64,000 nucleotides of DNA from Anaerolineales bacterium (GCA_034430895.1 DAOUDW010000034.1:90156-154155), one strand, 5' to 3'. Numbered from the stretch's first letter, positions 9,280-56,907 are shown. Translations and numbers: made by a program. Notes: generated by a model not told the origin, from the sequence alone.

Positions 9280-9354
9280 TTAGCAGATAGCGAATTGCAG
9301 AGTGATCGAATACCATCGTGTAATATATTGAGGGATCGACAACGGGGATTCGAT

Positions 9355-9393
9355 AAAGGAAGCCCATGGAAAAATGGGCTTCCTTTATTTTAT
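9355..9393. terminator. Rho-independent terminator after rsfS (convergent with the giant TPR gene)
   Basis: A perfect 12-bp stem (aaaggaagccca / tgggcttccttt) has an 8-nt loop and is followed by attttat. It sits between convergent gene ends at 9279 and 9438. Confidence 0.8.
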
Positions 9394-9437
9394 AACTTGG
9401 TCTCAGGGTGACCACATTAACGAAGACGTATAAATAT

Positions 9438-12400
9438 CTACGCGACCTCTGTGCCTCGTTGGTAGGCTTTAATGGCTTCTTGTAGTTGATCGTTCTTCAT
9501 ATAGGCATCCCCAAGCAATTGCCATAGGTCTGGTGCTTCGGGTTCCCGATCCAGTGCTAAGTTTATGTCCTCGATCACCGCCTGCAACTCTTTTTTACGT
9601 TTGATTAGCTCGGTGTAATGCAGTTTTGCTTGTTCGATATTGTCCGTTGCGAAGGCTTGCCGGGCGAGATCGAGAATCTCGGAAGGCTCTAATTTTTTCG
9701 GTTTTGCTTTTATAGCACGAGCTGGTTCCGGTTCCGACTCGGGTTCCGGTTCGGGTTCCGGTTCGGGCTCCGGCTCCGGCTCTGGCTCGGGTTCCGGCTC
9801 GGGTTCCGGCTCTGGCTCTGGCTCTGGCTCGGGTTCCGGTTCGGGTTCCGGCTCGGGCTCCGGCTCTGGCTCAGGTTCCGGTTCAATCGCAGCCGCAGTT
9901 GGTATTTCTTCGATTGCTCCTTCGGGTTCAAGGAAGTCAATTTCTTCCATTTCGGCGATGGAATACGTAATCGCCGCTTCTTGTTCCATGGAAGCCATCG
10001 GTGCAACTTCTTCCACGGAGGATTGCTCTTGGATGGGTTCAGGTTGTTCGAATTCGGGTTGCGGTTCTTCACTCGCTGCAAATTCCTCTACCACGGGTTC
10101 GATTTCAGCTGCTGGTTCCATTTCGGGTTCCGCAGATGGCGCTTGTGCAACTTCCTCATGAACCGCTGGAGCAGGGGGTGGGACTTCATCTGCAGCAGGT
10201 CGCAGCCAATCGGGAATCTCGATCTCAATGTCGGTATCGGGATCTCGGTAGACTGGACGTCGGGGTTCTATGGATTCAATGGCCTCGTCCGATTCGATGG
10301 AAGGAACTTCTTCCTCAACTACACCAGAATCCACTCTGGCATGGGAAACCATCGTCGGCGCATCCGGTTCGGGTTGAGAGGCAGCGACCTCCAATAACCA
10401 ATCAGGCGCTTCGTCTTCCGATTCGGCTTCGGGCAATTTGAGTGGCTGGGTTGCCATGCGATCGAGCCAATCGGTTGTCTCTTCGACTTCTCGTTTATCG
10501 TCGATGGAAGTATCCGCCACCGGAATTTCTTCGATCGGTTCAGCTGGAACTGGTTCTCTCGGAGCTGGCGCCACGCTAGGTTCAGCTTGTTGTACAGGTT
10601 CAACCGGGACAGCTTTCTGAGGTGCGGGTGTTTCCTCCCGTATTGGTGCCTCGAGGCTGGGCTCGATTCCTACATCAACATCGAGACCACGCTGCGCTGC
10701 CAGGTCTTCAAGCCAGTCGAGGCCCTGCTGTGGTTCTTCAGGAATATGCTGCTCTTCCATGATGGGCGCGGCAGGAGTACCCATACCTGCGGAGTCTGTG
10801 GCTTGCCAATCTTGCTGTGCGGAGGCATCTTCTTGTTCTACAACCGTTTGTTTGGCTGCGAGATCTTCAAGCCAGTCGAAAACCTCATCGTCTTTCAAAT
10901 CCGTTGTATCAGCAGCAGCGACCTCGTTGGCGAATGCATTCAGTGATCCGGTGTCGACGAGCTTTTGTTCCGCAATCGGTCGTTCTTCTACGGGTGCTGG
11001 CTCCTGATCGATTTCGTCGGTAGCGATTTCCTTAAGCCAATCGATCGTATCTTCTTCGGCAGCCGAGATTTTAAATTCCTGAGAATCTGGCTCGGCAATA
11101 CCATCGAGCCAGGCCGGTGCTTCATCCTCGGATGGGGTTTCTTCCTTTACGTCTTCTGTTGACGGTTCATCAATGCCTTGCAACCAATTCGGGGTCTCTT
11201 GCATGGAAGGCGTCTCGAAGGATGGGGCGGCCTGCTCCATTTCGGGTTTGCCGATACCCGTGAGCCAATCCTCAGCTTCTCCGCTTTGGATCGATTCAAT
11301 CGAAGCCATAGGTTCCACTTGTTCAGCAGCAGGTGTTACCTGTTCGGGTTCGGCGGCCGGTCTATCCGTTTCCTTTGAATCCAGATCCGATAGCCAATCC
11401 AATGTGTCGTCGTCAGGCGCTTTTGCTATCCCTGGTGTGGGTTGGGCAATTTCTGGGCTGGTTTGAACTTCTGGTTGTGTTTCAACAACCTGCGGCATTT
11501 GTTCTGCTTCTTCACCTAGCTTGGTTAAACTCTCTAGCCAACTTGGTGCTTCTACGCTTTTTTCTTGTACTGCTTCGGCGTAGAATTCTTCTTCCTCTTC
11601 TAGTGCGGAGGAAAAATCCTTCTTCGAGAGTTCGACCGAATCAGGAGCGGCTATATTTTGAAGCCAATTTGGAGCTTCAGCTGCGGGTACCGCATCGGGA
11701 GGCGTTACGCTTGGCGTGAGTTCAAAATCGTCAGGTGGGGCAGCTGCTTGTGCTTGGTCTGCACTGTCTTTCTCGGGTGTGAATAGTCCTTCAGGTTGTT
11801 CCCCAACAACCGCTGCTGCATCTGCTTGTGAGCCTGGCTCAATCCCACCTGCATAGGCTTCCGCTGGGGTAGGTTCTTCAATGCCGTGTTCCCTGCTTTC
11901 ATCGAACCATTCGGGAAGTTTGACCTCCGACTTGACTGCAGTTTCTTCACTCACCGGCTCTTCTTCGTCATCGTCGAACGGAATTCCTTTCTTCTTTATT
12001 TCCTGGGATTCGCGATCCCCGAGCCAGGTGATGATTGTGGGAGTTGCTCCGGGTTCTTGCGCACCTAACCAACCTGGAAGCGATCCGGACTCGCCTTCAT
12101 CGTCCAGGTCACTTTGTTGGGATACCGCTTCTTCAATTTCCGGTTCGACGCCAAGTACTGGTTCATCCGAGATGGGTGGGGCGGAGTCGCTTGGGCTGGG
12201 CGCAACTTCACTCATATCTGCCGCGATGTCTCCCAGCCAATCAGGTAAACTGCTTCCGCCGCTTCCACCTTGCGCGGCCGCTTCATCAGGAGCAATATCA
12301 TGCATCCAACTCGGAATTTTAGCCGGCGTGAGTTCGGCATCTTCATCACCCGTCGCTTCATTCTCTGAAGATGATGAGTCGCTGGGCAAGATTCCCGCAT

Positions 12401-13544
12401 CGAGGGAATCAAGTTCATCGTCGCTGAATGAAACCGGTCCTTCCTGAATCTCACCCGTCGACTTTGTCCATCCGGCTTCACTCATCCATTCCGGGATCTT
12501 CGATGCAGCAGATTTTGCTTCTTCCTCTGAAGGTGTTCTTTCTGCTTCAGGAGATGCTGACTCTGAGGGTTCATCCGGCGTAAAGGGGGGAGGGGCATCA
12601 GAATCTTGATTCATATCGCTCGTCGCTTTTTGGGTAGATTTACCGAGTTCTTCGAGCCATGTTGGTTTTGACGGTTTTTTAAGTGTGCCCGAATCGGTGT
12701 CCCCAAGTTTTACTCCTAGAGATGCGGCCCAGGACGGTTTGCCAGGCTCCGTTGATGGCATGGGTTGGCCAGGGCTCCATTCGAGACGTTCCAATTTCAC
12801 ACTGCTTGCATCGACGGTTTCCGGATCGATGCTGGCATCCTCAACGAACGCCATGTACGGGTCAATTGCAGCCAATCGTCGATGGTATGTGCTGGCTTCT
12901 TCCGCTTTATTATTTACTCGAAGCACCGAAACCATAATACGGTTCGCATCCAGGCAATAAGGTAATTTTTCCAGGATTTGATTGCCAACTTCCGCAGCTT
13001 CAAGATATTGATTTGTCCGCCAATACATGGATGAGAGCATCACTTGCAAATCAGGACGTTCAGGGTCTTCATGAAGGGCTGCGCGTAACTCTGCGATCGC
13101 CTGAGAATACAATTCTCCATGTGCGTACATGCGTGCGAGTGCACCGCGCGTCATCCGTACTTTCGCGGGTTCGATTCCATCTCGATTGCCGATCAGTCGA
13201 CGCAGTTCCTGTTGGATCGCTGGATTGGCGGGGTTGGTCTCAAAAGCGCGTTCCATATGCCATATCGCAGAGTCTAAATTGCCTTCATCTTCACGAATGA
13301 TGGCCATTCCAATGTGAGAGACGAAATCATCTGGTGCGGCAGAGAGAACGCGTTGAAATATATCAGCTGCATCACCGTAGCGCTTGGCTTCCAGGTAGGA
13401 TTTGCCCAGCAGACGATAGGTTTCCAGGTGTTTTGGGTAAGATTCAAGGATTCTGCGGCAATGGGAAATCGCCTCATCGAGTTTTTGCTGTTCGATGAGA
13501 TCGTCGATTGCTTTGATATAGGCGCGTAACGTTATCTCTGCCAT
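9438..13544 (-). CDS. Giant (1368 aa) TPR-capped, highly acidic, largely disordered protein with about 20 P-x-W-L motifs and an (EP)27 tract
   Basis: It is a single uninterrupted ORF. The N-terminal ~235 aa and C-terminal ~80 aa have TPR-like periodicity ([18 protein letters not shown]...; [21 protein letters not shown]). The middle ~1050 aa are D/E/P/A/S-rich. I saw no signal peptide or TM helix. Confidence 0.85.
9723..9884 (-). repeat. In-frame hexanucleotide tandem repeat (GGYTCN on plus), x27, encoding (EP)24-ES-(EP)2
   Basis: Direct reading gives 162 bp of ggttcc/ggttcg/ggctcc/ggctct/ggctcg units. Codon check: aa 1221-1274 of the giant ORF. The plus-strand (GS)n ORF is its antisense shadow. 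Confidence 0.95.
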
Positions 13545-13729: not shown

Positions 13730-14761
13730 TTATAATCCGTGTTGGGATCGAATGCGATCGATCAACGAGTTAATCGTCGGCTCCGGATAGGGGGCGGGAC
13801 CCAGTCGATCCCCATCAAGTGGCAGATCTTGCGTGGCGAGAAGAACAGCTTGCAGGTTATCTCTCAGTGCCTGTGGATCGTATCCACCCTCCAGGATGTA
13901 GATGATTCGTCCCATGCAGTGTATATCTGCATAGGATTTGAGAAATTCTCCGATTTGATGATATCCAGTAGTGGTTAATTGAAGGTTGGCCAGCGGATCG
14001 TTCCAATGTGCGTCAAAGCCGGCGGAGACCAGGATGATGTCGGGGGAAAAACGCTCGCAGATCGGCGCAACCAGTTCGGTGAAAACCCTTTCGAAGGCCT
14101 GGTCACCGGCACGAGGCGGCAGGGGGATGTTGACCACCGTTCCTTCTCCCTGATCGAGTCCTGTCTCTTCAACAAATCCTGTGCCGGGGTAGATTCCCGT
14201 TTGATGGGTGGAAAGATACAAAACGTCCGCATCCCGTTCGAAAATGTCTTGTGTGCCGTTACCGTGATGGACATCGAAATCCACGATCAAAATGCGTTTC
14301 AAGCCCAGGGATTGTGCGTGACGGGCAGCAATGGCAATGTTGTTGAGAAGGCAAAAACCCATGGCCTTTGTAAATGTAGCGTGGTGTCCGGGAGGACGAA
14401 CCAACGCGAATCCTCGGGACGCTTCTCCGCCGGCAACTCTCGAGACGATTTCAATCGCACCTCCGGCAGCCATTAGTGCTGCCTGGAATGATGCCGGTGT
14501 GACGTAGGTGTCCCCATAATCCACGAAGCCAGGTCCCTGTTTGGCCGCCTGCTCGAGTGCGGATAAATATTCTTGCGGATGTATGGTTGTTATTGTATCT
14601 GCCGCTGCAGCAGCAGCTTCAACAAATGTTACGGCATCACTCACAGGGGGGGGGAATACCTGATCGAAGTATTGAAAACGACGTGGATTTTCCGGGTGTC
14701 CTTCCAGTACATGATCTGGAGAAGGCACAAGCGTATATATGGAAGCATCCGATCGGGTCAT
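13730..14761 (-). CDS. Histone-deacetylase-family Zn amidohydrolase (AcuC / acetylpolyamine amidohydrolase-like)
   Basis: 343 aa. Motifs are RPPGHHA, DFDVHHGNGTQDIF, SAGFDAHWNDPL and EGGY. It starts 54 bp downstream of the priming transferase on the same strand. Confidence 0.85.
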   Translation of the reverse strand: MTRSDASIYTLVPSPDHVLEGHPENPRRFQYFDQVFPPPVSDAVTFVEAAAAAADTITTIHPQEYLSALEQAAKQGPGFVDYGDTYVTPASFQAALMAAGGAIEIVSRVAGGEASRGFALVRPPGHHATFTKAMGFCLLNNIAIAARHAQSLGLKRILIVDFDVHHGNGTQDIFERDADVLYLSTHQTGIYPGTGFVEETGLDQGEGTVVNIPLPPRAGDQAFERVFTELVAPICERFSPDIILVSAGFDAHWNDPLANLQLTTTGYHQIGEFLKSYADIHCMGRIIYILEGGYDPQALRDNLQAVLLATQDLPLDGDRLGPAPYPEPTINSLIDRIRSQHGL

Positions 14762-14815: not shown

Positions 14816-16231
14816 CTAGAATGCACCTCTCCCCATGATGACCGCGATGGGTGTCATCAGCAGAATTCTAATATCCAGCCAGAGAGAGTAGTTGTAGATG
14901 TAATACAGGTCTTCATCGGTGTTGAGGTGCATTGGCTTTTCGCTGCGCCCATTAATTTGCCACCAACCTGTGATGCCTTGTGGAACCGCGAAGCGTTTCC
15001 GTTGCCAGGGTCGATATCGATCTACCAACCAGGGCATCTCCGGACGGGGACCGACGAGAGACATTTCACCTTTCAGAACATTAATGAGTTGAGGTACTTC
15101 GTCCAGGCTGTAGCGTCTAAGGAAACGGCCGACTTTGGTAACGCGTGGATCACCGGCACGTTTGTGAATGACCTCGTTTTCTCCGGCCTCTCGCAATTTC
15201 TCCATCATCTTGATCTCAGCATCTGCGATCATCGTTCGAAATTTAAGCATCTCGAAGGGTTTGCCATTCTCGCCAACACGCGTTTGCCGGAACAGGATTG
15301 GCCCGGCGCTGTCTAGCCGGATGGCGGCTGCAGCTGCGGCCAAAATTGGCGATGATAGGATAACCATTATCAGACTGATAACGAAGTCGAAGACGCGTTT
15401 GATCATCCGAGGTACACCGCGAATAACGGGCTCTCGAAGACCGATAAGCGGGAAACCGCCAAGCATTTCGACATTCGCCTGGACCAATGCCAAAGAGAAA
15501 TAATCCGGAATTACTTTGATCCGTATCGGAAATCGTTCCAGGTTTGCGACGAGGGCGTGTAGTTTGTCGTATGCGCGTGGAGGCAAAGTGCTCCAAACTT
15601 CCGATACGACCTGGCTTTCAACGATTCGAAGCAAGTCGTCAAGCTTACCAAGGACGGGAACCCCATCGATATTCTGTCCTTTAAGATCAGGATCATCATC
15701 CAGGTACCCGATCACCTGGTAGCTTGAAGCATGGTAGCTTCGGATTGTTTTCAATACCTCTCGCCCTAGTGTGCCGGCTCCGATGAAGAGAACTCGGGTC
15801 GGTCCCAGAATAGAATGGTTACGCCTAAGACGTGTATATAGCAAGGTTGCAACTCGAAATGTTGTCATAAGAACGAGGGTGAGGATAAAGATATAGGCGA
15901 ATTGAAGGCGGGAGACTTGGCGGTAGGTCATATAAAGTGAACCGGAAAAAAGAATGGTGGCTGCAGCGGAAGCGGTAACCAATTGCGTGAAACGCGAAGT
16001 CAGTCGACGTGGCCGATCGAAATTATACGCTCCCGACATGACCAATGAACCTGACCAGCAAACGATGGCCAGGATATACACCGGCAGCGGCAAGATTTCA
16101 TCTCCGGTATCCAGTGTCTTTCCGAAGGGAAGCAGCACTCGCAGCCATGTGGCGGTCAACAGGCTGAGGGGAGTGAGGAATATATCCCCGATGGAGAGTA
16201 GAACGGAGAGGCGGCTTATGCGTCGATTCAT
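14816..16231 (-). CDS. Polyprenyl-phosphate glycosyl-1-phosphate transferase (WbaP/WcaJ-type priming enzyme)
   Basis: 471 aa. It has an N-terminal 4-5 TM segment, a Rossmann-like linker (VLFIGAGTLG) and a C-terminal Bac_transf core (ILFRQTRVGENGKPFEMLKFRTM...DPRVTKVGRFLRRYSLDEVPQLINVLKGEMSLVGPRP). Confidence 0.9.
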   Translation of the reverse strand: MNRRISRLSVLLSIGDIFLTPLSLLTATWLRVLLPFGKTLDTGDEILPLPVYILAIVCWSGSLVMSGAYNFDRPRRLTSRFTQLVTASAAATILFSGSLYMTYRQVSRLQFAYIFILTLVLMTTFRVATLLYTRLRRNHSILGPTRVLFIGAGTLGREVLKTIRSYHASSYQVIGYLDDDPDLKGQNIDGVPVLGKLDDLLRIVESQVVSEVWSTLPPRAYDKLHALVANLERFPIRIKVIPDYFSLALVQANVEMLGGFPLIGLREPVIRGVPRMIKRVFDFVISLIMVILSSPILAAAAAAIRLDSAGPILFRQTRVGENGKPFEMLKFRTMIADAEIKMMEKLREAGENEVIHKRAGDPRVTKVGRFLRRYSLDEVPQLINVLKGEMSLVGPRPEMPWLVDRYRPWQRKRFAVPQGITGWWQINGRSEKPMHLNTDEDLYYIYNYSLWLDIRILLMTPIAVIMGRGAF

Positions 16232-49562: not shown

Positions 49563-49609
49563 ACGCGCACGGGAACTTTTTTTCAGTTCTCACCACGAAA
49601 GGAGGCGCT

Positions 49610-50767
49610 ATGCGTGGTGGCCGAGTCCTGATGCTGCTTGCCATAATTATTCTCTTAGTTGTGCTTGCCGCATATCTTATGCTTGGGGGAAATGAAGAAC
49701 CTGCACAACCTGAAGAAGGTGGGCCAATGCAACCAGGATTGTCTGCAGATATGGTTTTTGTTGTCGTCGCTGGGCAAGATATTTCCCGCGGTTCAATCAT
49801 TCCCGAACAAGATGGTGTCGTCGTCTCCCAGATGCCGAGAGATCTGGTTATCGAAACGATGATCAGTGGTGAAGATGAAGAAGAACTTAAAGAACGGGTT
49901 GTTGGACGTAGAGCCCGGATGGACATCGCTCGTGGCATCTTTATCACGGAAGGCATGCTTACAGAGGAAGCCGGTGATCTGCTTGGGGTTGGATCTGATG
50001 CGGCAATGGCGATCGAGCCAGGGTATACGGCGATCACCATTCCATGGACTCGTATTTCGGGTGTAGCCTATGCACTGCGAAAAGGAGATCAAGTTGATGT
50101 TCTCGTCAGTTTCCTGATTGTCAGCGTCGATGCGGATTTCCAAACCGTGCTTCCCAATGAAACGACAGCTCTCAGCGCGCTCGGTGGTACCCCACAGCTG
50201 TTTGGACCGCATGTTACCGCACCAGTTTATCCTGGAATAGAAGATCCAACGAGACGAATAGATGGCGAATACTGGCCATACGGACGTGTCGATATTGATC
50301 CGTTGTTGGATTTGCCTGTCCATGTAGTTCCGTCAGAATCGCAACGACCTCGATTGGTTTCGCAGCGCTTGATCGAGAATGCTACGGTTCTTGAAGTCGG
50401 AACTTTTCCATTGCGAGATGTCATGGGACATGATGTGGTCATTCTGGACACCCCCGAAGGCGAGGAGCCGACAACTGAGAATGTAGAGGAAAGTCTTCCG
50501 GACATCATTACACTGATTGTCACGCCACAAGACGCTTTGGCTTTGAATTGGGCGGTTAAAGCAGGAGCAGATCTCGTATTAACACTGCGATCACCGGACG
50601 ATACTACGATTACAGATACCAGTAGTATCACCCTGCAATACTTGTTGGATAATTACAACATTACTGTCCCGGCCAAGCTCCCCTTTGCTTTGACGCCCGC
50701 CATCAATCAACCGATCGTTCCATTCATCGATTATAAAGTCAATGTTGAAGAACGAGGTGGTGAATAG
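49610..50767 (+). CDS. cpaB: Flp pilus assembly protein CpaB/RcpC (SAF domain)
   Basis: 385 aa. It has an N-terminal TM anchor (VLMLLAIIILLVVLAAYL), then a SAF-like segment (VVVAGQDISRGSIIPEQ), then an RcpC-like beta-rich region. GGAGG RBS. Confidence 0.75.
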   Translation: MRGGRVLMLLAIIILLVVLAAYLMLGGNEEPAQPEEGGPMQPGLSADMVFVVVAGQDISRGSIIPEQDGVVVSQMPRDLVIETMISGEDEEELKERVVGRRARMDIARGIFITEGMLTEEAGDLLGVGSDAAMAIEPGYTAITIPWTRISGVAYALRKGDQVDVLVSFLIVSVDADFQTVLPNETTALSALGGTPQLFGPHVTAPVYPGIEDPTRRIDGEYWPYGRVDIDPLLDLPVHVVPSESQRPRLVSQRLIENATVLEVGTFPLRDVMGHDVVILDTPEGEEPTTENVEESLPDIITLIVTPQDALALNWAVKAGADLVLTLRSPDDTTITDTSSITLQYLLDNYNITVPAKLPFALTPAINQPIVPFIDYKVNVEERGGE

Positions 50768-50812
50768 GTATTTCTGCAACATCTAAGGGTTGGTTGATCA
50801 TCGGAGGATCGT

Positions 50813-52033
50813 ATGTCTGAAAACGCGGAAGGAACAATCCGCGTACTCATCGTTGATGACATTGCGGAAACACGTGAGAATATCCGAAAATTGCTGCAAT
50901 TTGAATCGGATATTAATGTCGTTGGTGCTGCAGTAAGTGGTCAGGATGCACTTGAATTAGCACGTGAAATAGATCCTGATGTTGTTGTTATGGATATCAA
51001 CATGCCTGACATGGATGGTATCACGGCAACACAGGAATTATTAAAAGACGTTCCCTATGCGCAAATAGTTATTTTATCTGTTCAAAGTGAAGCCGATTAC
51101 ATGCGTCGCGCAATGCTTGCTGGCGCGAGAGATTTCATCGCCAAGCCTCCATCTGGCGATGAGCTTATTGCAACGATTCGATCTCTTGCAGAACGAGCTC
51201 AAGAACAACGCAAATCGTTAGAGCGGCCGACTACTCAGATCCTACAGCCCATGCCAGGAATGGGGTATGCACTGCCGGAGGGGAAAATAATTGCCATATA
51301 CAGCGCAAAAGGTGGGGTGGGCTGTACAGTCTTGGCAACAAATATCGCTTTGGGTCTCCAAACTGAAGAGACTCCAACCGTCCTGGTGGACACTTCATTG
51401 CAGTTTGGGGACGCTGCTGTCTCCCTCAATTTGCAGGTTAAATTCAGTATTGCGGATATATCTCCGCGGGCCGATGAGGTAGATCCGGAACTTCTCGGGG
51501 AAATCCTTCTCCATCATGATAGCGGTTTAAATGTACTTGCAGCACCGCCGCGCCCTGAAATGGCGGATGAGGTTAACGCGGAACAGATTCGAAAAGTGTT
51601 ACAGCACCTCCGCAAGCAATTTGCTTATGTTATCGTCGACATGAGCTCCAATATGGATGATATTGCTCTTGCCGTTATGGATGCAGCTGATATCTTGGTC
51701 GTCGTTACTGTACCTGAGATTCCTTCCATTAAGGACGCTAGGCTGTTGTTTGACCTATTGACTGTTCTGGAATTTCCCAAAGAGAACGTCTTCTTTGTGC
51801 TTAATAAAATGGATCGCAAATCCGGAATAACGCCAGACGCAGTTGAGGAAAATTTAAATTACTCGGTTAACGGGGTAATCCCATTTGACGAACGAACGGT
51901 TTCGACTTCGGTTAATCGTGGTGCCCCATTAATGCTTTCGGATCGTGGTTCATCGATTGCAAGGAGTATCATCGACATCCTGGGAGCATTAAAAGAAAAG
52001 TTGCTCGAGATGGAGAAGGTTGTAGAAGAGTAA
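50813..52033 (+). CDS. cpaE: TadZ/CpaE pilus-assembly ParA/MinD-like ATPase with a canonical N-terminal receiver domain
   Basis: The receiver is RVLIVDDIAETRE, VVVMDINMPDMDG, IVILSVQSE and DFIAKPPS. The ATPase domain carries a deviant Walker A (IYSAKGGVGCTVLATN). Confidence 0.85.
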   Translation: MSENAEGTIRVLIVDDIAETRENIRKLLQFESDINVVGAAVSGQDALELAREIDPDVVVMDINMPDMDGITATQELLKDVPYAQIVILSVQSEADYMRRAMLAGARDFIAKPPSGDELIATIRSLAERAQEQRKSLERPTTQILQPMPGMGYALPEGKIIAIYSAKGGVGCTVLATNIALGLQTEETPTVLVDTSLQFGDAAVSLNLQVKFSIADISPRADEVDPELLGEILLHHDSGLNVLAAPPRPEMADEVNAEQIRKVLQHLRKQFAYVIVDMSSNMDDIALAVMDAADILVVVTVPEIPSIKDARLLFDLLTVLEFPKENVFFVLNKMDRKSGITPDAVEENLNYSVNGVIPFDERTVSTSVNRGAPLMLSDRGSSIARSIIDILGALKEKLLEMEKVVEE

Positions 52034-52091
52034 GTGTAACGTACCATGGGTTGAGTATAATGCTGAGTGTGATTTTTAGGAGAGTGATACT

Positions 52092-53498
52092 GTGTCGCTA
52101 TTAAAAAGAATTGAACAAGGACAGGCAGAGACTCCCTCTAGCGCTGCTGGTACCCCCCCCGTTGGGGGGACCGGACGCCTATCGGGGTTGAATGCTCGTC
52201 GTGTCGCACCACCACGCTCAGCACAGCGGGATACGTATTACGATCTAAAAGCGCGGGTTCAAAATAAACTTTTGGCGGAACTGGATCCATCCATGGATGT
52301 CAGCCAAACCGCAGAAGTGCGAAGAACGATCGAAGAGCTGTTTGAAAATATCTTGGCGGAAGAAAAAATCGCTCTCTCTCGGCCAGAGCGCAGACGTCTC
52401 TTTGAGCAGATTGTAGCTGAGATTCTCGGTCTCGGACCGCTTGAGCCGCTTCTCGCGGATGACACGATTACTGAAATCATGGTCAATGGCCCGAAACAAA
52501 TCTACATCGAACGGCATGGTAAACTCCATCGCGAACCGGCGTCCTTCGAAAGCGGTGACCATCTCATGCGCATCATCGACCGCATTGTGGCTCCTCTTGG
52601 TCGACGCATCGATGAATCTAGTCCCTATGTTGATGCTCGTCTTCCGGATGGTTCGCGTGTGAATGCAGTCATTCCTCCAATTTCCCTGGTTGGTCCTATA
52701 CTGACCATTCGTAAATTTTCTCGCGATCCCATTACCGTCGAACAATTGATTGATTATGGCACACTGACTCATGAATCTGTGGAATTCCTCAAAGCCTGTG
52801 TTATTTCAGCGATCAATGTTGTTATCTCTGGCGGTACTGGTTCGGGAAAAACCACGTTGTTGAACGTTCTCTCCCAGTTTATCCCCACAGACGAGCGCAT
52901 TGTCACCATCGAGAACGCGGCTGAGCTTCAATTGCGTCAGGAACATGTTGTTACGCTCGAATCGAGGCCACCCAACATCGAGGGGCGTGGTGAGGTAACT
53001 ATTCAAAACCTCGTTGTAAACAGCCTGCGTATGCGCCCGGACCGCATCATTGTAGGTGAGATCCGTGCGGAAGAATCGCTGGACATGTTGCAGGCGATGA
53101 ACACCGGCCATGAGGGCTCAATGACTACTGCACACTCCAACAGCCCGCGCGATACGCTTGCTCGTATCGAAACGATGACTTTGATGGCAGGTATGGACCT
53201 GCCCGTGCGGGCGATTCGTGAGCAGATTTCATCCGCTATGGAACTCGTCGTTCACCTGGGCCGATTACGCGATGGTACCCGAAAGGTAACCCACATTTCA
53301 GAGATTCAAGGCATGGAGGGTGATGTCATTACCATGACGGACCTCTTTGTCTATGAACAAACCGGCTTCGAAAACGGTAAGATCATTGGCAGATTGCGGC
53401 CTACTGGACTTCGTCCGAAATTTATTGATAAGATAGAGACATCCGGGATTCATCTCCCCGCCACCATTTTTGGTGTTGGTGGAAAGCGTGGGTACTAG
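52092..53498 (+). CDS. cpaF: Tad/Flp pilus secretion ATPase CpaF/TadA
   Basis: 468 aa with a GTG start after AGGAGA. Walker A is SGGTGSGKTTLLNVL. Asp/His boxes and Walker B are present (DRIIVGEIR...AMNTGHEGSMTTAHSNS). Confidence 0.92.
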   Translation: MSLLKRIEQGQAETPSSAAGTPPVGGTGRLSGLNARRVAPPRSAQRDTYYDLKARVQNKLLAELDPSMDVSQTAEVRRTIEELFENILAEEKIALSRPERRRLFEQIVAEILGLGPLEPLLADDTITEIMVNGPKQIYIERHGKLHREPASFESGDHLMRIIDRIVAPLGRRIDESSPYVDARLPDGSRVNAVIPPISLVGPILTIRKFSRDPITVEQLIDYGTLTHESVEFLKACVISAINVVISGGTGSGKTTLLNVLSQFIPTDERIVTIENAAELQLRQEHVVTLESRPPNIEGRGEVTIQNLVVNSLRMRPDRIIVGEIRAEESLDMLQAMNTGHEGSMTTAHSNSPRDTLARIETMTLMAGMDLPVRAIREQISSAMELVVHLGRLRDGTRKVTHISEIQGMEGDVITMTDLFVYEQTGFENGKIIGRLRPTGLRPKFIDKIETSGIHLPATIFGVGGKRGY

Positions 53499-53501
53499 CA
53501 T

Positions 53502-54485
53502 ATGGATTCGAATTTTCTCCTTGTAGTAGGATTGGTCCTCGGCTTACTTCTACTACTTGTCGGTATTGTCTCGTCTGTCGTCGGGCGAGGCTCTATCGTG
53601 GAAGAGCGGCTTGGCCAATATTCCGAGACGGGCCAATTAAGCTATGGGATGGAAGAGACCGCTGATCGTGAGCGTGAGAGGTCTACGCCACTCTCGGATT
53701 TCTTCAATCGTATGGGGGAGGGAACGGATCTCTTTGATGGGATCTCAAGGGACCTCGCCCGCGCAGATATCAAACTGCGGCCGGCCGAATACATCGCCGG
53801 CCGTTTCATAAGTGGTATCATTGGTGGAGCGCTTGGCTATTTCGCGACCGGTCAAAGCATTTTATTTGGCATCGTCTTATTCTTCATCGGTTTATTTATC
53901 CCTCCCTTTTACGTTGGATTTGCAAAAAAGCGGCGGTTGAAATCATTTGACAACCAGTTGTCTGATATGATCAATTTGATGGTTAATGGGTTGCGAGCTG
54001 GTTTCTCCATATTACAGGCGATGGAATCCGTAAGCCGTGAATTGCCATCTCCAATTTCAGATGAGTTCCGACGCGTCGTGCAGGAAGTGCAACTGGGTCT
54101 AAGCATTGAGGATGCACTTGATCACCTGATTCGCCGTATAAATAGTGACGATCTTGATCTGGTGATAACGGCGATCAATGTTCAACGCGAAGTCGGTGGC
54201 AATTTAGCAGAAATTCTCGATACGATCTCGCATACGATTCGCGAACGTGTGCGGATTAAAGGACAGATCGCAGCCTTAACGGCACAAGGCCGGGCGACAG
54301 GATGGGTTATCGCCGCGTTACCCTTTGCATTGACAGGGATTTTATTCGCCGTGAATCGTGAATACATTATGGTGCTATTTGAGCCCGCAACCAGAGGTTG
54401 TGGTATTCCGTTGGTCATATTGGCCTTAGTCATGGTTATCACGGGTATGATCGCCGTTCAGAAGATTGTAAGTATCGACATTTAG
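53502..54485 (+). CDS. tadB: Tad pilus platform protein TadB (T2SS F-family)
   Basis: 327 aa. It has an N-terminal TM helix, a T2SSF domain (FDNQLSDMINLMVNGLRAGFSILQAMESV...) and C-terminal TM helices. Confidence 0.85.
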   Translation: MDSNFLLVVGLVLGLLLLLVGIVSSVVGRGSIVEERLGQYSETGQLSYGMEETADRERERSTPLSDFFNRMGEGTDLFDGISRDLARADIKLRPAEYIAGRFISGIIGGALGYFATGQSILFGIVLFFIGLFIPPFYVGFAKKRRLKSFDNQLSDMINLMVNGLRAGFSILQAMESVSRELPSPISDEFRRVVQEVQLGLSIEDALDHLIRRINSDDLDLVITAINVQREVGGNLAEILDTISHTIRERVRIKGQIAALTAQGRATGWVIAALPFALTGILFAVNREYIMVLFEPATRGCGIPLVILALVMVITGMIAVQKIVSIDI

Positions 54486-54596
54486 TAATCGAAAATCACG
54501 CTGTGTATTCTTGAGGACAAATTGAAAAGCGTGATGTTGGACACTACAAGGATGCTTTTAGGATCGTGAAGGCGCGAAGTATCGAGGTGAACTGAT

Positions 54597-55538
54597 ATGG
54601 ATTCGATGCTCATTTTGATCGTTGTCGTGGTTGTTTTGATACTGGCGATCGCTCTGGTGGTCGCAGGAATCAAGGCGCCGCAGGCTGGTGATCCGATTTC
54701 AGATCGCCTGGCAGAATATTCTGCCAGCGAAATGCCCCTGTCGCTTGAAGATCTCGAATTATCCCAGGGTTTCTTTGAGCGAATAGTCCTACCGATGTTT
54801 AATAAAGTCGGTGAGATTGCCTCGCGCTTCACGCCGCAAGCAACGATCGAAAATGCACGGAACCGCATTGAGATGGCAGGCAATCCGATGCAGTTGGATC
54901 CCGCCTTCTTTCTGGTCATGCGGGTTATTGTCGGAGTCTTTTTTGGTGGCGCGATCTTTTTTGTTTTTTCGACATCCAGTGAAAATTGGCTCCAAGGCCT
55001 GGGTTTATCCGTGCTCTTTACCGTCCTTGGTTTTTACTTTCCGGATTTATGGCTGACGAGCAAGATCAAATCTCGGCAAAGGTCGGTATTTCGGGCATTA
55101 CCGGATGCCCTTGATTTACTCAACGTTTGTGTCGAAGCGGGTCTTGGTTTTGATGCCGCAATGGGGAAGGTTCATGAGAAGTGGGAGGACGATCTCGCCT
55201 TGGAGTTCGGTCGGGTGCTCCAGGAAATTCGCCTGGGCAAGCTGCGACGTGAAGCGTTGCGAGACCTGGCAGACCGTGTTGATGTGCCCGAACTGACTTC
55301 TTTCATCGCTGCCGTCATCCAATCCGAGCAGTTGGGTGTGAGCATGGCGAAAGTCCTTCGCATTCAATCGGATCAAATGCGTGTCCGCCGGCGTCAACTT
55401 GCCGAAGAGGAAGCAGGTCGTGCGCCGATCAAAATGGTGTTTCCAATTGGTTGTCTGATCTTTCCCTCAATTTTGATATTGTTGCTTGGACCCGCTGCGC
55501 TGACCATCATGACTTCAACACTGGGCGGATTATTTTAA
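54597..55538 (+). CDS. tadC: Tad pilus platform protein TadC (T2SS F-family)
   Basis: 313 aa. The T2SSF domain is LPDALDLLNVCVEAGLGFDAAMGKV...LRREALRDLADRV. GAGGTG RBS. Confidence 0.85.
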   Translation: MDSMLILIVVVVVLILAIALVVAGIKAPQAGDPISDRLAEYSASEMPLSLEDLELSQGFFERIVLPMFNKVGEIASRFTPQATIENARNRIEMAGNPMQLDPAFFLVMRVIVGVFFGGAIFFVFSTSSENWLQGLGLSVLFTVLGFYFPDLWLTSKIKSRQRSVFRALPDALDLLNVCVEAGLGFDAAMGKVHEKWEDDLALEFGRVLQEIRLGKLRREALRDLADRVDVPELTSFIAAVIQSEQLGVSMAKVLRIQSDQMRVRRRQLAEEEAGRAPIKMVFPIGCLIFPSILILLLGPAALTIMTSTLGGLF

Positions 55539-55574
55539 ACAACATACTTGAGAGACCAATCCAGAGGGGGGTAA

Positions 55575-56318
55575 TTGCCACATTTGATTCTCGGTCGGTA
55601 TCTGAATAGTCCGAAAAGTATACTTGGCGCCTGTCTTGACCTACTCTTTCCTCCTCGTTGTGTGGGATGCAATCGACCGGGGACGTTTTTATGTCAGAAT
55701 TGTATTAAAAACATTGCGAACATTTCTGGTCGGCTTTGCATTTCTTGCGGCTTGCCCCTTAAGGAAGGAAATGTGTGTCTTTCCTGCCAGTCGGAGACAT
55801 ATCCCTTTCAAATTCGATCATATGCCTGGTATCGAGAACCACTGCGTCGGGCTTTGTTGCACTTAAAATATCGACCCAATAAACGATTGTCCGATTGGTT
55901 CGCGGATCGATTGGCAGAGATCGTCGAACGGGAGTCATGGCCGCGGATGACCGTGTTATCCGTGCCTTTAAGTAAAAATAAATACCATCGAAGGGGGTAT
56001 AATCAAGTAGATTTAGTCGCTTCATCTCTGGCACGTAAGCTTGGTTTACCATTTCAGCCCAATATACTTCGTAGGATAAAAGATACACAATCTCAGGTAG
56101 GGCTTTCTCCAGAAGCTCGCAAACATAATGTGCAAGGGGCTTTTGTGGCAGAATATAGAAAGTTACAGGGAGCGTGTATTCTATTGGTTGACGATCTATT
56201 TACAACAGGTGCAACACTTTCGGCATGCACGCAAGCTTTGATGCTTGCAGACGTGGGAGAGATATTTGCCGTAACCATCGCGCGTGCGGATCATTCTGAT
56301 TTTGTATTCAGCACATAA
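55575..56318 (+). CDS. comF: ComF-family protein (ComFC-like, phosphoribosyltransferase domain)
   Basis: It has N-terminal 2x CxxC zinc-finger motifs (CVGCNR...CQNC; CISCG...CLSC). The C-terminal PRT motif is ILLVDDLFTTGATL. Confidence 0.85.
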   Translation: MPHLILGRYLNSPKSILGACLDLLFPPRCVGCNRPGTFLCQNCIKNIANISGRLCISCGLPLKEGNVCLSCQSETYPFQIRSYAWYREPLRRALLHLKYRPNKRLSDWFADRLAEIVERESWPRMTVLSVPLSKNKYHRRGYNQVDLVASSLARKLGLPFQPNILRRIKDTQSQVGLSPEARKHNVQGAFVAEYRKLQGACILLVDDLFTTGATLSACTQALMLADVGEIFAVTIARADHSDFVFST

Positions 56319-56337
56319 TTTACTCTGAGGATATTAA

Positions 56338-56907
56338 ATGACCATTAAAGTGATGATAAATGTGAAGGACATGGATCTTGGAGATCGCTTAAGGGGGTAT
56401 ATTACCAAGAAGGTTGAAAAATTGGATCGTTATCTTGACATTCTCCAAGAAGCCAAGGTGGATTTGCGGTATGTAAAATCAGCTCGTAATGCGAACGATC
56501 GGCAGGTTGTCCAACTCACAGTCCGCGGGAAAGGTGTCTTGCTGCGCGCGGAGGAACGCACCGATGACATCTTCGCGTCGGTGGATGCCGTTATGGATAA
56601 GATGTACCGACAGATCGAACGCTATAAGGGGCGCCGTTGGCGTGGTCGGGGAGACGGACGTTCAGCCTCCGATCTCGCTTTGGACCAAGCCGAGACTACG
56701 GAACCAGCATCCGATCTGGAAAATACAATTGTGCGACGTAAACGTTTCCTGCTTACACCGATGGACGAGTTGGAAGCGATTGAGCAAATGAGCCTTGTCG
56801 GTCATGAGGATTTCTTTCTATTCCTTAATGCTGAAAGTCAGACGGTGAATGTCCTTTATCGCCGTCGTGATGGAACGCTTGGTTTGATTGAACCTGAATT
56901 TGATTAG
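56338..56907 (+). CDS. hpf: Ribosome hibernation-promoting factor, long form
   Basis: 189 aa. It has an N-terminal S30AE/YfiA domain (ITKKVEKLDRYL...) and a C-terminal dimerisation domain (PMDELEAIEQMSLVGHEDFFLFLNAES..VNVLYRRRDGTLGLIEP). Confidence 0.9.
   Translation: MTIKVMINVKDMDLGDRLRGYITKKVEKLDRYLDILQEAKVDLRYVKSARNANDRQVVQLTVRGKGVLLRAEERTDDIFASVDAVMDKMYRQIERYKGRRWRGRGDGRSASDLALDQAETTEPASDLENTIVRRKRFLLTPMDELEAIEQMSLVGHEDFFLFLNAESQTVNVLYRRRDGTLGLIEPEFD

Follow-up and report, generated by a model that had tools for sequence, protein, structure and literature searches.

A gene on the minus strand of a 64,000-nucleotide stretch of DNA from an Anaerolineales bacterium (GCA_034430895.1, DAOUDW010000034.1:90156-154155; the whole stretch is hereafter termed the window) was found to encode a 1368-residue protein in which 20 copies of a tryptophan-anchored short linear motif (SLiM) are dispersed through a long, acidic, intrinsically disordered region (IDR), bounded at both ends by tetratricopeptide repeats (TPRs). 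Most of the motif positions are retained among homologs of this protein, and arrays of the same motif recur in a second class of proteins with a different architecture, typified by an N-terminal zinc ribbon and a C-terminal membrane anchor. Retention of the motifs at orthologous positions, their gain and loss in individual lineages, and their recurrence in the second architecture are best explained by a portable docking motif. Our preferred reading, to which we assign a probability of about 0.5, is that the gene product is a soluble cytoplasmic scaffold or hub of the Anaerolineae that uses the Trp motifs as multivalent docking peptides, with the TPR ends adding further contacts.

The tryptophan motif and its enrichment

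The open reading frame (ORF) spans positions 9438..13544 of the window, with its stop codon at 9438-9440, and the coordinates given below for its parts all lie on the same minus strand. Its product contains 26 Trp residues, of which 22 fall within residues 260-1130. Motif copies, 20 in number, run from W272 (codon 12729-12731) to W1113 (codon 10206-10208). A note made earlier from the sequence alone (hereafter the original prediction) had placed about 20 such copies at 10200-12735; all 20 strings quoted in it are present in the protein and the range is correct. Its remark that nearly every central Trp sits within a motif was likewise borne out, the exceptions being W359, which is part of a composite island described below, and W913. 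The copies are indeed dispersed through the central region, although the measured Trp-to-Trp distances range from 6 to 82 residues rather than the 25-70 that had been estimated.

Enrichment of the motif was tested using 20,000 composition-preserving shuffles of residues 260-1130. A Trp followed directly by Leu was observed 16 times against an expectation of 1.2, a Pro at position -2 relative to the Trp 13 times against 2.5, and the combined pattern W-[LMF]-x-x-[ILMV]-[AGTD] 14 times against 0.1, with none of the shuffles reaching any of these counts. The simpler pattern W...[ILMV] has 15 matches in the protein. The conserved Trp (W0), L+1, I/L+4 and A+5 share one face of a helix, and the mean hydrophobic moment of the motif windows is 0.42 as against 0.24 for the IDR background.

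Conservation and selection

A multiple alignment of 121 sequences, namely the window protein and 120 homologs, was used for the comparisons that follow. The orthologs keep the motif positions: 17 of the 20 motif Trp residues are aligned to a Trp in 79-100% of the 120 homologs. The motif windows display 45% identity versus 16% in the spacers between them, a difference matched by none of 5000 random placements. The spacers vary up to four-fold in length while the motifs stay in place; for example, the segment between W836 and W891 ranges from 54 to 240 residues. Ratios of nonsynonymous to synonymous substitution (dN/dS), computed against the closest relative (L006), were 0.05 for the N-terminal TPR region, 0.14 for the motif windows, 0.35 for the spacers and 0.08 for the C-terminal TPR region.

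The sequence logo derived from the homologs is characterized by E at -4 (38%), [I/A/V] at -3, P at -2 (63%), D/E at -1, the Trp itself, L at +1 (63%), any residue at +2, G/E/D at +3, L/I at +4, A/G at +5 and E at +6. The median number of Trp residues per homolog is 25, and across the family the IDR contains between 18 and 39 of them. Three copies, anchored by W546, W627 and W1049, are confined to the closest relatives. These sub-lineage copies, together with the range of Trp counts per IDR, reveal the gain and loss that is typical of SLiMs.

A repeat search at the DNA level recovered a single tandem repeat in the gene, the Pro-Glu tract at 9727-9884, which lies beyond the last motif; the remaining repeats were stretches of 15-28 nucleotides corresponding to motif codons. 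This agrees with the earlier observation that the spacers are non-repetitive in DNA. Recent DNA duplication as the source of the copies was ruled out by the lack of DNA-level repeats between them, which suggests that they are old and have been maintained. No other ORF with at least two motif copies was found in the window or the related loci, a weak test in that these loci mostly represent one syntenic region.

Motif classes and individual copies

At least three classes of motif and two composite islands can be distinguished, and orthologs preserve the position-specific variants. The original prediction of a multivalent scaffold displaying identical docking peptides thus stands in one part only: multivalent display of Trp motifs is supported by positional conservation, selection, predicted helices and the arrays in an unrelated architecture, but the copies are not identical. 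The canonical class conforms to PDWLxG[IL]AEPE, whereas class B consists of a longer pair at residues 885-898 and 941-958.

The array opens with motifs 1 (W272; 12714..12743) and 2 (W296; 12642..12671), in both of which the Trp is present in 99% of the homologs. These are followed by a composite island at residues 350-385 (12390..12497), recognized from conservation and structure prediction, which combines motif 3 (W353) with W359. P351, M354, G358, W359 and F373 are invariant in this island, and its consensus is IPxWMxEAGWxESxGExxExPVSFSDxELxxLEAG. Motifs 4 (W413; 12291..12320) and 5 (W436; 12222..12251) retain their Trp in 100% and 92% of the homologs respectively. A second composite element, at residues 488-512 (12009..12083), joins motifs 6 (W492) and 7 (W507), with both Trp residues found in 100% of the homologs and separated by exactly 14 residues in 121 of 121 sequences; its consensus over residues 490-510 is PxW(14)...PGATSTIxTWLGDR.

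Next come two lineage-specific copies, motif 8 (W546; 11892..11921; Trp in 3%), which is shared with the close relative P0001, and motif 9 (W627; 11649..11678; Trp in 7%), which is present in P0001 and P0003. Motif 10 (W669; 11523..11552) has the consensus PSWLAGVAEAA and a Trp in 100% of the homologs, and motif 11 (W717; 11379..11408) a Trp in 82%. Residues 756-842 (11019..11279) form a quasi-periodic block with W760, W787, W812 and W836, conserved in 97-100% of the homologs; here motifs of the consensus PDWLxG(I)AEPE lie about 24-27 residues apart, with median spacers of 22-24 residues. The two class-B copies are centered on W891 (10851..10892; Trp in 100%; consensus DDDEVFxWLExLAAxQ) and W944 (10671..10724; Trp in 99%; consensus GLEWLExLAxxRGxDxDV). 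They are 92% identical in DNA over 25 nucleotides, and the distance between W891 and W944 is confined to 38-53 residues. The array closes with motif 18 (W1026; 10452..10481; Trp in 86%), the lineage-specific motif 19 (W1049; 10383..10412; Trp in 1%) and motif 20 (W1113; 10191..10220; Trp in 79%), which is the sole copy to fit a pattern like that of the FtsZ C-terminal tail.

Structure prediction

AlphaFold2 (AF2) was run twice with a 114-sequence alignment, once on residues 1-520 of the window protein and once on a full-length 1079-residue homolog (P0013). In the former, short helices were predicted at residues 271-275 (motif 1), 295-309 (motif 2), 352-356, 375-382, 412-417 (motif 4), 436-444 (motif 5) and 503-509, nearly all of them on Trp motifs. 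The predicted local distance difference test score (pLDDT) reached 72-83 over the island at 340-390, the highest values outside the TPRs. In P0013 both TPR ends fold, the C-terminal cap forming 5 helices with pLDDT 93-98, and the entire region between them falls below pLDDT 50 except for helices on nearly every motif. The motif helices span 4-19 residues each. Those of class B are the longest (14-19 residues) and the most confident (71-81); the equivalent of W891 lies in a 19-residue helix with pLDDT 71-81, and that of W944 in one with pLDDT 79-80.

A second architecture bearing the same motif array

A motif profile of 30 columns, built solely from the 20 motif windows of the window protein, was run against 1.84 billion representative proteins and retrieved 392 matches at E <= 1e-3. 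Homologs from the TPR family matched it over 11-25 separate stretches each. Among the top 150 of the 392 matches, about 67 belong to the TPR family or are fragments of it, and 83 have neither TPR end. In 64 of these 83 the C terminus is formed by a hydrophobic helix with a short basic tail behind it, indicative of a transmembrane (TM) segment; a zinc ribbon, single or double (Pfam Zn_Ribbon_1 or DZR), stands at the N terminus of 42, and 40 have both ends. Between them runs an acidic disordered chain with 10-35 Trp motifs, whose logo shows E at -4, [L/V/I] at -3, P at -2 (68%), D at -1 (62%), W, L at +1 (72%), two variable positions and L at +4. The named sources are metagenome-assembled genomes of Anaerolineae or Anaerolineaceae, together with one fragment from Oscillochloris; representative members are MDR3575510.1, MBN2002723.1 and the protein encoded at L092:3302-6328 in the cultured Longilinea arvoryzae (L092, DF967972.1).

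The genes for these membrane-anchored arrays lie in a conserved operon, which was seen in all five contigs examined (L088-L092; for example L088:6464-15871). It comprises, in order, a small ORF, a DUF6754 gene, a polytopic membrane protein of about 205 residues, the array protein (about 900-1230 residues), a polytopic membrane protein of about 225 residues, a PF13941 ATPase (about 575 residues), a protein of about 350 residues with a weak match to the barrel-sandwich hybrid, and a single-pass protein of about 205 residues. No TPR is encoded in it. The PF13941 protein is a "MutL"/GlmL-like ATPase of the actin fold that is widespread in Anaerolineae (2029 matches) and for which sequence searches recovered no relative in the PDB. 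Literature searches on DUF6754 and PF13941 returned nothing relevant.

We propose a broad class of PDWL-array proteins, with E-hydrophobic-P-[DE]-W-L-x-x-[LI] dispersed 10 or more times along a disordered acidic chain, to which the window protein belongs. It lies outside the second family, having no CxxC zinc ribbon, no TM anchor and none of the operon genes nearby.

In P0123 and other Zn-ribbon array proteins, the Pfam SAM_1 and SAM_2 models give whole-protein E-values of 2e-10, which arise from many partial matches. These cover only profile positions 4-20, that is helix 1, and a SAM domain in the second family was rejected. PDWLxxLG resembles helix 1 of the SAM domain ('WLxxIGL'), and this likeness could be a source of false SAM annotations.

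Domain architecture of the 1368-residue protein

The start of the protein, 'MAEI(S/T)LRAY', is kept among homologs, and an identical protein is present in NCBI GCA_964606275.1. As had been proposed, TPR modules cap both ends, a result supported by Pfam, which places TPRs at residues 1-230 and 1290-1368 only, and by AF2. The N-terminal solenoid (residues 1-233; 12846..13544) comprises about 7 helix pairs and scores well above the Pfam cut-offs from residues 12-81 onward (TPR_19 78.1 bits against 25, TPR_16 70 against 32.7, TPR_14 68.1 against 23.5). AF2 places 14 helices within residues 3-233, consistent with an all-α solenoid, and the domain is 80-90% identical across the 120 homologs. Foldseek and phmmer searches of the PDB with this domain recovered generic TPR neighbors only (consensus TPR, OGT, PEX5 and APC). 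Conservation across the entire protein peaks within this domain, at residues 61-90 (13275-13364), with 90% identity. The same stretch has the lowest AF2 confidence in the TPR domain (pLDDT 46-60 in the construct from the window, 66-74 in P0013), and it may represent an atypical repeat, a hinge or a binding site.

A conserved linker (residues 234-261; 12762..12845) with an identity of about 0.5 follows the solenoid and contains W256, which is present in 100% of the homologs. It leads into the polyacidic IDR that houses the motif array (residues 262-1218; 9891..12761). That this region is acidic and disordered, as first suggested from the sequence, is confirmed by its net charge of -215 over 1024 residues (family median -203), its location on the disordered side of the charge-hydropathy plot and the AF2 pLDDT below 50 in the spacers, which differ in length and share about 16% identity. 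Searches of the central ~1000 residues with Pfam and NCBIfam detected no known domain apart from compositional matches to the Pro-Glu tract, and neither database holds a model for the motif.

The Pro-Glu tract itself (residues 1219-1277; 9714..9890) consists of about 29 dipeptides and is probably a stiff spacer. Its DNA is an imperfect 6-nucleotide tandem repeat (9727-9884; hexanucleotide GGYTCN), and the equivalent segment of homologs is Pro-rich but variable. Relative to the closest relative it displays very high synonymous divergence (pS 0.66) with the peptide preserved, and on the opposite strand it gives rise to a spurious Gly-Ser ORF of 173 residues (9640-10161). A TonB or Trypan_PARP identity was rejected, the matches being compositional, restricted to this tract and far below the cut-offs (18.4 bits against 315, and 39.4 against 100). 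The C-terminal TPR cap (residues 1286-1368, about 83 residues; 9441..9689) is recognized by Pfam TPR_2, TPR_8 and TPR_1, with TPR_2 reaching 60.2 bits (cut-off 27) at residues 1338-1365.

The protein has only 2 Cys residues and no Cys pairs. No TM helix or hydrophobic segment was detected, the top mean Kyte-Doolittle value over 19 residues being 0.92, in agreement with the suggestion that both a signal peptide and a TM helix are lacking. A scan for promoters and terminators yielded nothing beyond the expectation from shuffled sequence.

Phyletic distribution and gene neighborhood

Protein searches recovered 1896 relatives, the best 120 with scores of 580-1833 bits and lengths of 900-1500 residues. 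These 120 are named "tetratricopeptide repeat protein" or hypothetical, with one mislabelled CcmH/NrfG, and the family is known in databases only as "TPR protein". A literature search on the motif strings and on Anaerolineae TPR proteins likewise found nothing relevant. A scan of one genome per species detected relatives in at least 515 GTDB species. Nearly all of the best 80 of these 515 are labelled Anaerolineae, Anaerolineales or Anaerolineaceae, the exceptions being generic Chloroflexota-type labels and one evident mis-bin. Two family members bear archaeal labels, L016 (JAIWHF010000127.1, Methanosarcinales archaeon) and P0090 (Bathyarchaeota archaeon). Both show ordinary within-family similarity, with 54% identity over the first 515 residues in the case of L016, and mis-binning is the most likely explanation for both labels.

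The prevalent gene order is H+-PPase, PMT_2 and an HDAC-like gene, followed by the TPR gene and NDK (with or without SIR2), while RsfS, LOG-like and LigT genes converge from the opposite strand; the region has the look of housekeeping DNA passed on by vertical descent. In 59 of 80 loci the HDAC-like gene is the immediate upstream neighbor on the same strand (13730-14761, minus strand, in the window). NDK lies downstream on the same strand, about 75 base pairs (bp) away, in 60 of 80 loci, and is absent in the window, where the stop codon of the TPR gene is separated by 158 bp (9280-9437) from the convergent RsfS gene with no NDK between them. A SIR2 deacetylase is found downstream in 20 of 80 loci. 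Thus, a protein whose net charge is near -230 has deacetylases of two types (HDAC/acetylpolyamine-amidohydrolase-like and SIR2) on its flanks.

Elsewhere in the window, a large envelope or exopolysaccharide gene cluster occupies positions ~14800-45600 and includes Bac_transf (14816-16231), WecG, GT4, a Polysacc_synt flippase, several glycosyltransferases of the PMT_2, GT87 and GT2 types, and FrhB-like and LPG_synthase_TM genes. A Tad/Flp-type pilus locus at ~49600-56900 includes an RcpC/SAF-like gene, a TadZ-like fusion of a response regulator and ParA, a T2SSE ATPase (52092-53498) and two T2SSF genes. On the 3' side of the pilus genes lie a ComF-like DZR_2 phosphoribosyltransferase (55575-56318) and a ribosome hibernation factor (56338-56907).

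Proposed function and alternative explanations

As a docking hub, the protein would operate through Trp motifs that each become folded when they dock in the hydrophobic pocket of a reader, while the acidic and length-variable spacers would keep the docking sites accessible and independent of one another. One molecule could then hold many copies of the reader, or attach with high avidity to a target that is itself repetitive or oligomeric, and the TPR ends might supply further contacts or self-association. The occurrence of the same array in Zn-ribbon tail-anchored proteins argues for a portable motif whose reader acts in trans, and not for a peculiarity of one protein.

As candidate readers we would rank first the GlmL/MutL-like ATPase of the operon, then the protein's own N-terminal TPR domain, and lastly a division protein such as FtsA or SepF. 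Among the proteins encoded beside the membrane-anchored arrays, the ATPase alone is clearly soluble, and it has an actin fold like that of FtsA, the reader of the similar FtsZ tail. A bolder extension, which we offer tentatively and consider doubtful in its entirety, envisages a hitherto unrecognized, Chloroflexota-specific peptide-reader system in which the membrane-bound arrays would concentrate the actin-fold ATPase at a membrane machine encoded by the DUF6754 operon, with the TPR protein as a cytoplasmic hub or buffer, possibly a condensate. If true, this would parallel the recruitment of actin-fold FtsA by the FtsZ tail and provide a bacterial counterpart of SLiM-array receptors such as PEX5.

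Several points weigh against the hub interpretation. Part of the apparent positional conservation could be explained by the aligner anchoring on Trp residues, and for this reason measures that depend little on the alignment were added; both dN/dS and the 11-25 profile matches per homolog are independent of such anchoring. AF2 confidence is below 60 on most of the canonical motifs, which means that no docking is predicted in cis. Among the 120 + 120 matches listed for the TPR gene and the ATPase operon, no contig is common to both, and the operon genes are absent from the flanks of 85 TPR loci and from the window. Furthermore, the housekeeping neighbors of the TPR gene (HDAC-like, NDK, RsfS, LigT) give no functional pointer, and the binding partner is still a candidate only.

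The best surviving alternative, though an unlikely one in our estimate, is self-recognition, wherein the protein's own TPR domains, chiefly the N-terminal solenoid, read the Trp motifs. Each chain would offer about 20 ligands and 2 readers, and intra- or intermolecular networks might result in the form of autoinhibited coils, gels or condensates, and the TPR protein could be drawn to the membrane by the Zn-ribbon tail-anchored arrays. The N-terminal TPR region is the most constrained part of the protein (80-90% identity, dN/dS 0.05), as expected of a peptide-reading domain, and the raised AF2 confidence on the 340-390 island (72-83) and on the two WLExLA helices is suggestive, at the level of a model, of packing against a folded part. 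A precedent is offered by the kinesin light chain TPR, which is reported to read Trp-containing acidic peptides (PMC5739299). However, the kinesin-type signature [LM][DE]W[DE] is absent here, confidence on the canonical motifs in cis is low, and the second family and its operon are devoid of TPRs, so that a TPR is not the reader encoded with those arrays.

A role in membrane insertion and a purely electrostatic role are both less likely than a docking function. As interface anchors, amphipathic helices bearing Trp, a residue that favors the lipid interface, would embed themselves weakly in the membrane from its cytoplasmic side, with the avidity of about 20 copies tethering an acidic polymer brush. 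We deem this improbable: the motifs are amphipathic, but their helices are only about 6-9 residues long, the Asp and Glu on either side (E at -4, D/E at -1, E at +6) would be repelled by anionic bacterial membranes, and the second family is already TM-anchored and has no need of 15-20 more such elements. We hold an equally low opinion of the view that the protein acts as a bulk polyanion, for instance in cation or polyamine buffering, nucleic-acid mimicry or entropic spacing between the two TPR domains, with the Trp motifs serving only to promote transient structure or solubility. The charge of the IDR in this protein and across the family, the purifying selection on the spacers (dN/dS 0.35), which fits a constraint on composition, and the HDAC/acetylpolyamine-amidohydrolase-like gene upstream in 59 of 80 loci are in its favor, but it leaves the ~17 position-conserved motifs, the same logo elsewhere and the extreme rarity of such arrays unexplained.

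Mimicry of the FtsZ C-terminal peptide, by which the motifs would bind FtsA, SepF or another Z-ring partner multivalently as a competitor or scaffold at the division site, was raised by the original prediction and is unsupported rather than refuted, though in our estimate highly improbable: the half-logo E-[IVA]-P-x-W-L does share the acidic, aliphatic, Pro, aromatic and Leu positions of that peptide, of the form [DE]-[ILV]-P-x-aromatic-L, and the proximity of the membrane arrays to another ATPase with the fold of FtsA makes docking of a peptide on an actin fold plausible by analogy, but a basic residue occupies +2 in only 1 of the 20 copies and in 126 of 2891 family Trp sites (4%), with +3 to +6 acidic or aliphatic, the motifs are internal rather than C-terminal, and constant competition with FtsZ anchoring by a protein of 20 binding sites would probably do harm. 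EIPDWLR (residues 1109-1115) is the single match to [DE][ILV]Px[FWY][LM][RK]. No linked division gene was found either, as the window and ~0.95 Mb of related loci (85 loci) contain no ftsZ, ftsA or sepF, with no tubulin signature in the window and no FtsZ homolog in the related loci.

Docking remains our favored function for the array. Its motifs keep their individual positions in at least 515 species of the Anaerolineae, an environmentally dominant class in sediments, digesters and activated sludge. Together, the two architectures define a peptide-reader module that can be tested and offer a handle on two large families of proteins annotated as "hypothetical" or "TPR". Cultured Longilinea arvoryzae has at least the membrane-anchored version.

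Comparison with known systems

Conserved SLiM arrays in long IDRs are characteristic of eukaryotic hubs, among them PEX5, GW182 and the endocytic adaptors, whereas arrays of this kind are, to our knowledge, rarely documented in bacteria. Hubs based on SLiM arrays are thus known, and what is new here is the bacterial setting and a motif common to two architectures. Those two architectures differ in their genomic context, the second family being encoded in the operon with DUF6754 and PF13941 and the TPR gene residing in an unrelated housekeeping neighborhood.

Among bacterial proteins, HubP and FimV are large hubs with a long acidic, repeat-bearing region and a TPR-like end, and the window protein resembles them in its size, its very acidic repeat-bearing region and its TPR ends. 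It differs in the lack of LysM, a TM segment and the FimV C-terminal domain in Pfam and NCBIfam searches, and in having dispersed Trp motifs in place of the repeats of about 46 residues that are seen in HubP. The FtsZ C-terminal peptide, with its consensus [DE]-I-P-x-F-L-[RK], shares with the present motif the acidic-[ILV]-P-x-aromatic-L core and docking as a short helix in a pocket of the partner, as would be predicted for the motif. However, it occurs as a single C-terminal copy followed by basic residues, whereas about 20 copies are found internally here and are followed by x-[GDE]-[LI]-[AG]-E.

The W-motifs of GW182 likewise place Trp residues in acidic disordered sequence, in multiple copies read by a helical-repeat protein. 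In kinesin light chain, a TPR domain is reported to read W-acidic cargo motifs (PMC5739299), and the likeness to both systems lies in Trp residues in acidic disorder that are read by a helical-repeat domain, with multiple copies giving avidity. Those motifs bind in an extended form, in contrast to the helices predicted here; [LM][DE]W[DE] has 0 matches in the window protein, and there is no homology.

The closest parallel is with PEX5, which carries 7-9 Trp motifs as against about 20 in the window protein. We know of no peroxisome and no PEX14 in bacteria. The diaromatic pattern W-x-x-x-[FY] has 0 matches in the window protein, whose motif is W-L-x-x-[IL], and the 7-repeat TPR domain is N-terminal, whereas in PEX5 the 7-TPR domain is C-terminal and follows the disordered half. 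Although PEX5 TPRs are among the matches of the N-terminal domain, their phmmer E-values of 2.5e-4 to 3.5e-4 are far weaker than those of the consensus TPR (3e-21) or OGT (2e-17). PEX5 is reported to combine in one polypeptide a TPR domain and a disordered region with Trp-anchored amphipathic mini-helices that have hydrophobic residues at i/i+4 (PMC8086558), and it is in this combination that the likeness resides. Every defining feature of PEX5 that was tested fails in the window protein, and we regard PEX5, by analogy and not by membership, as its nearest functional analogue.

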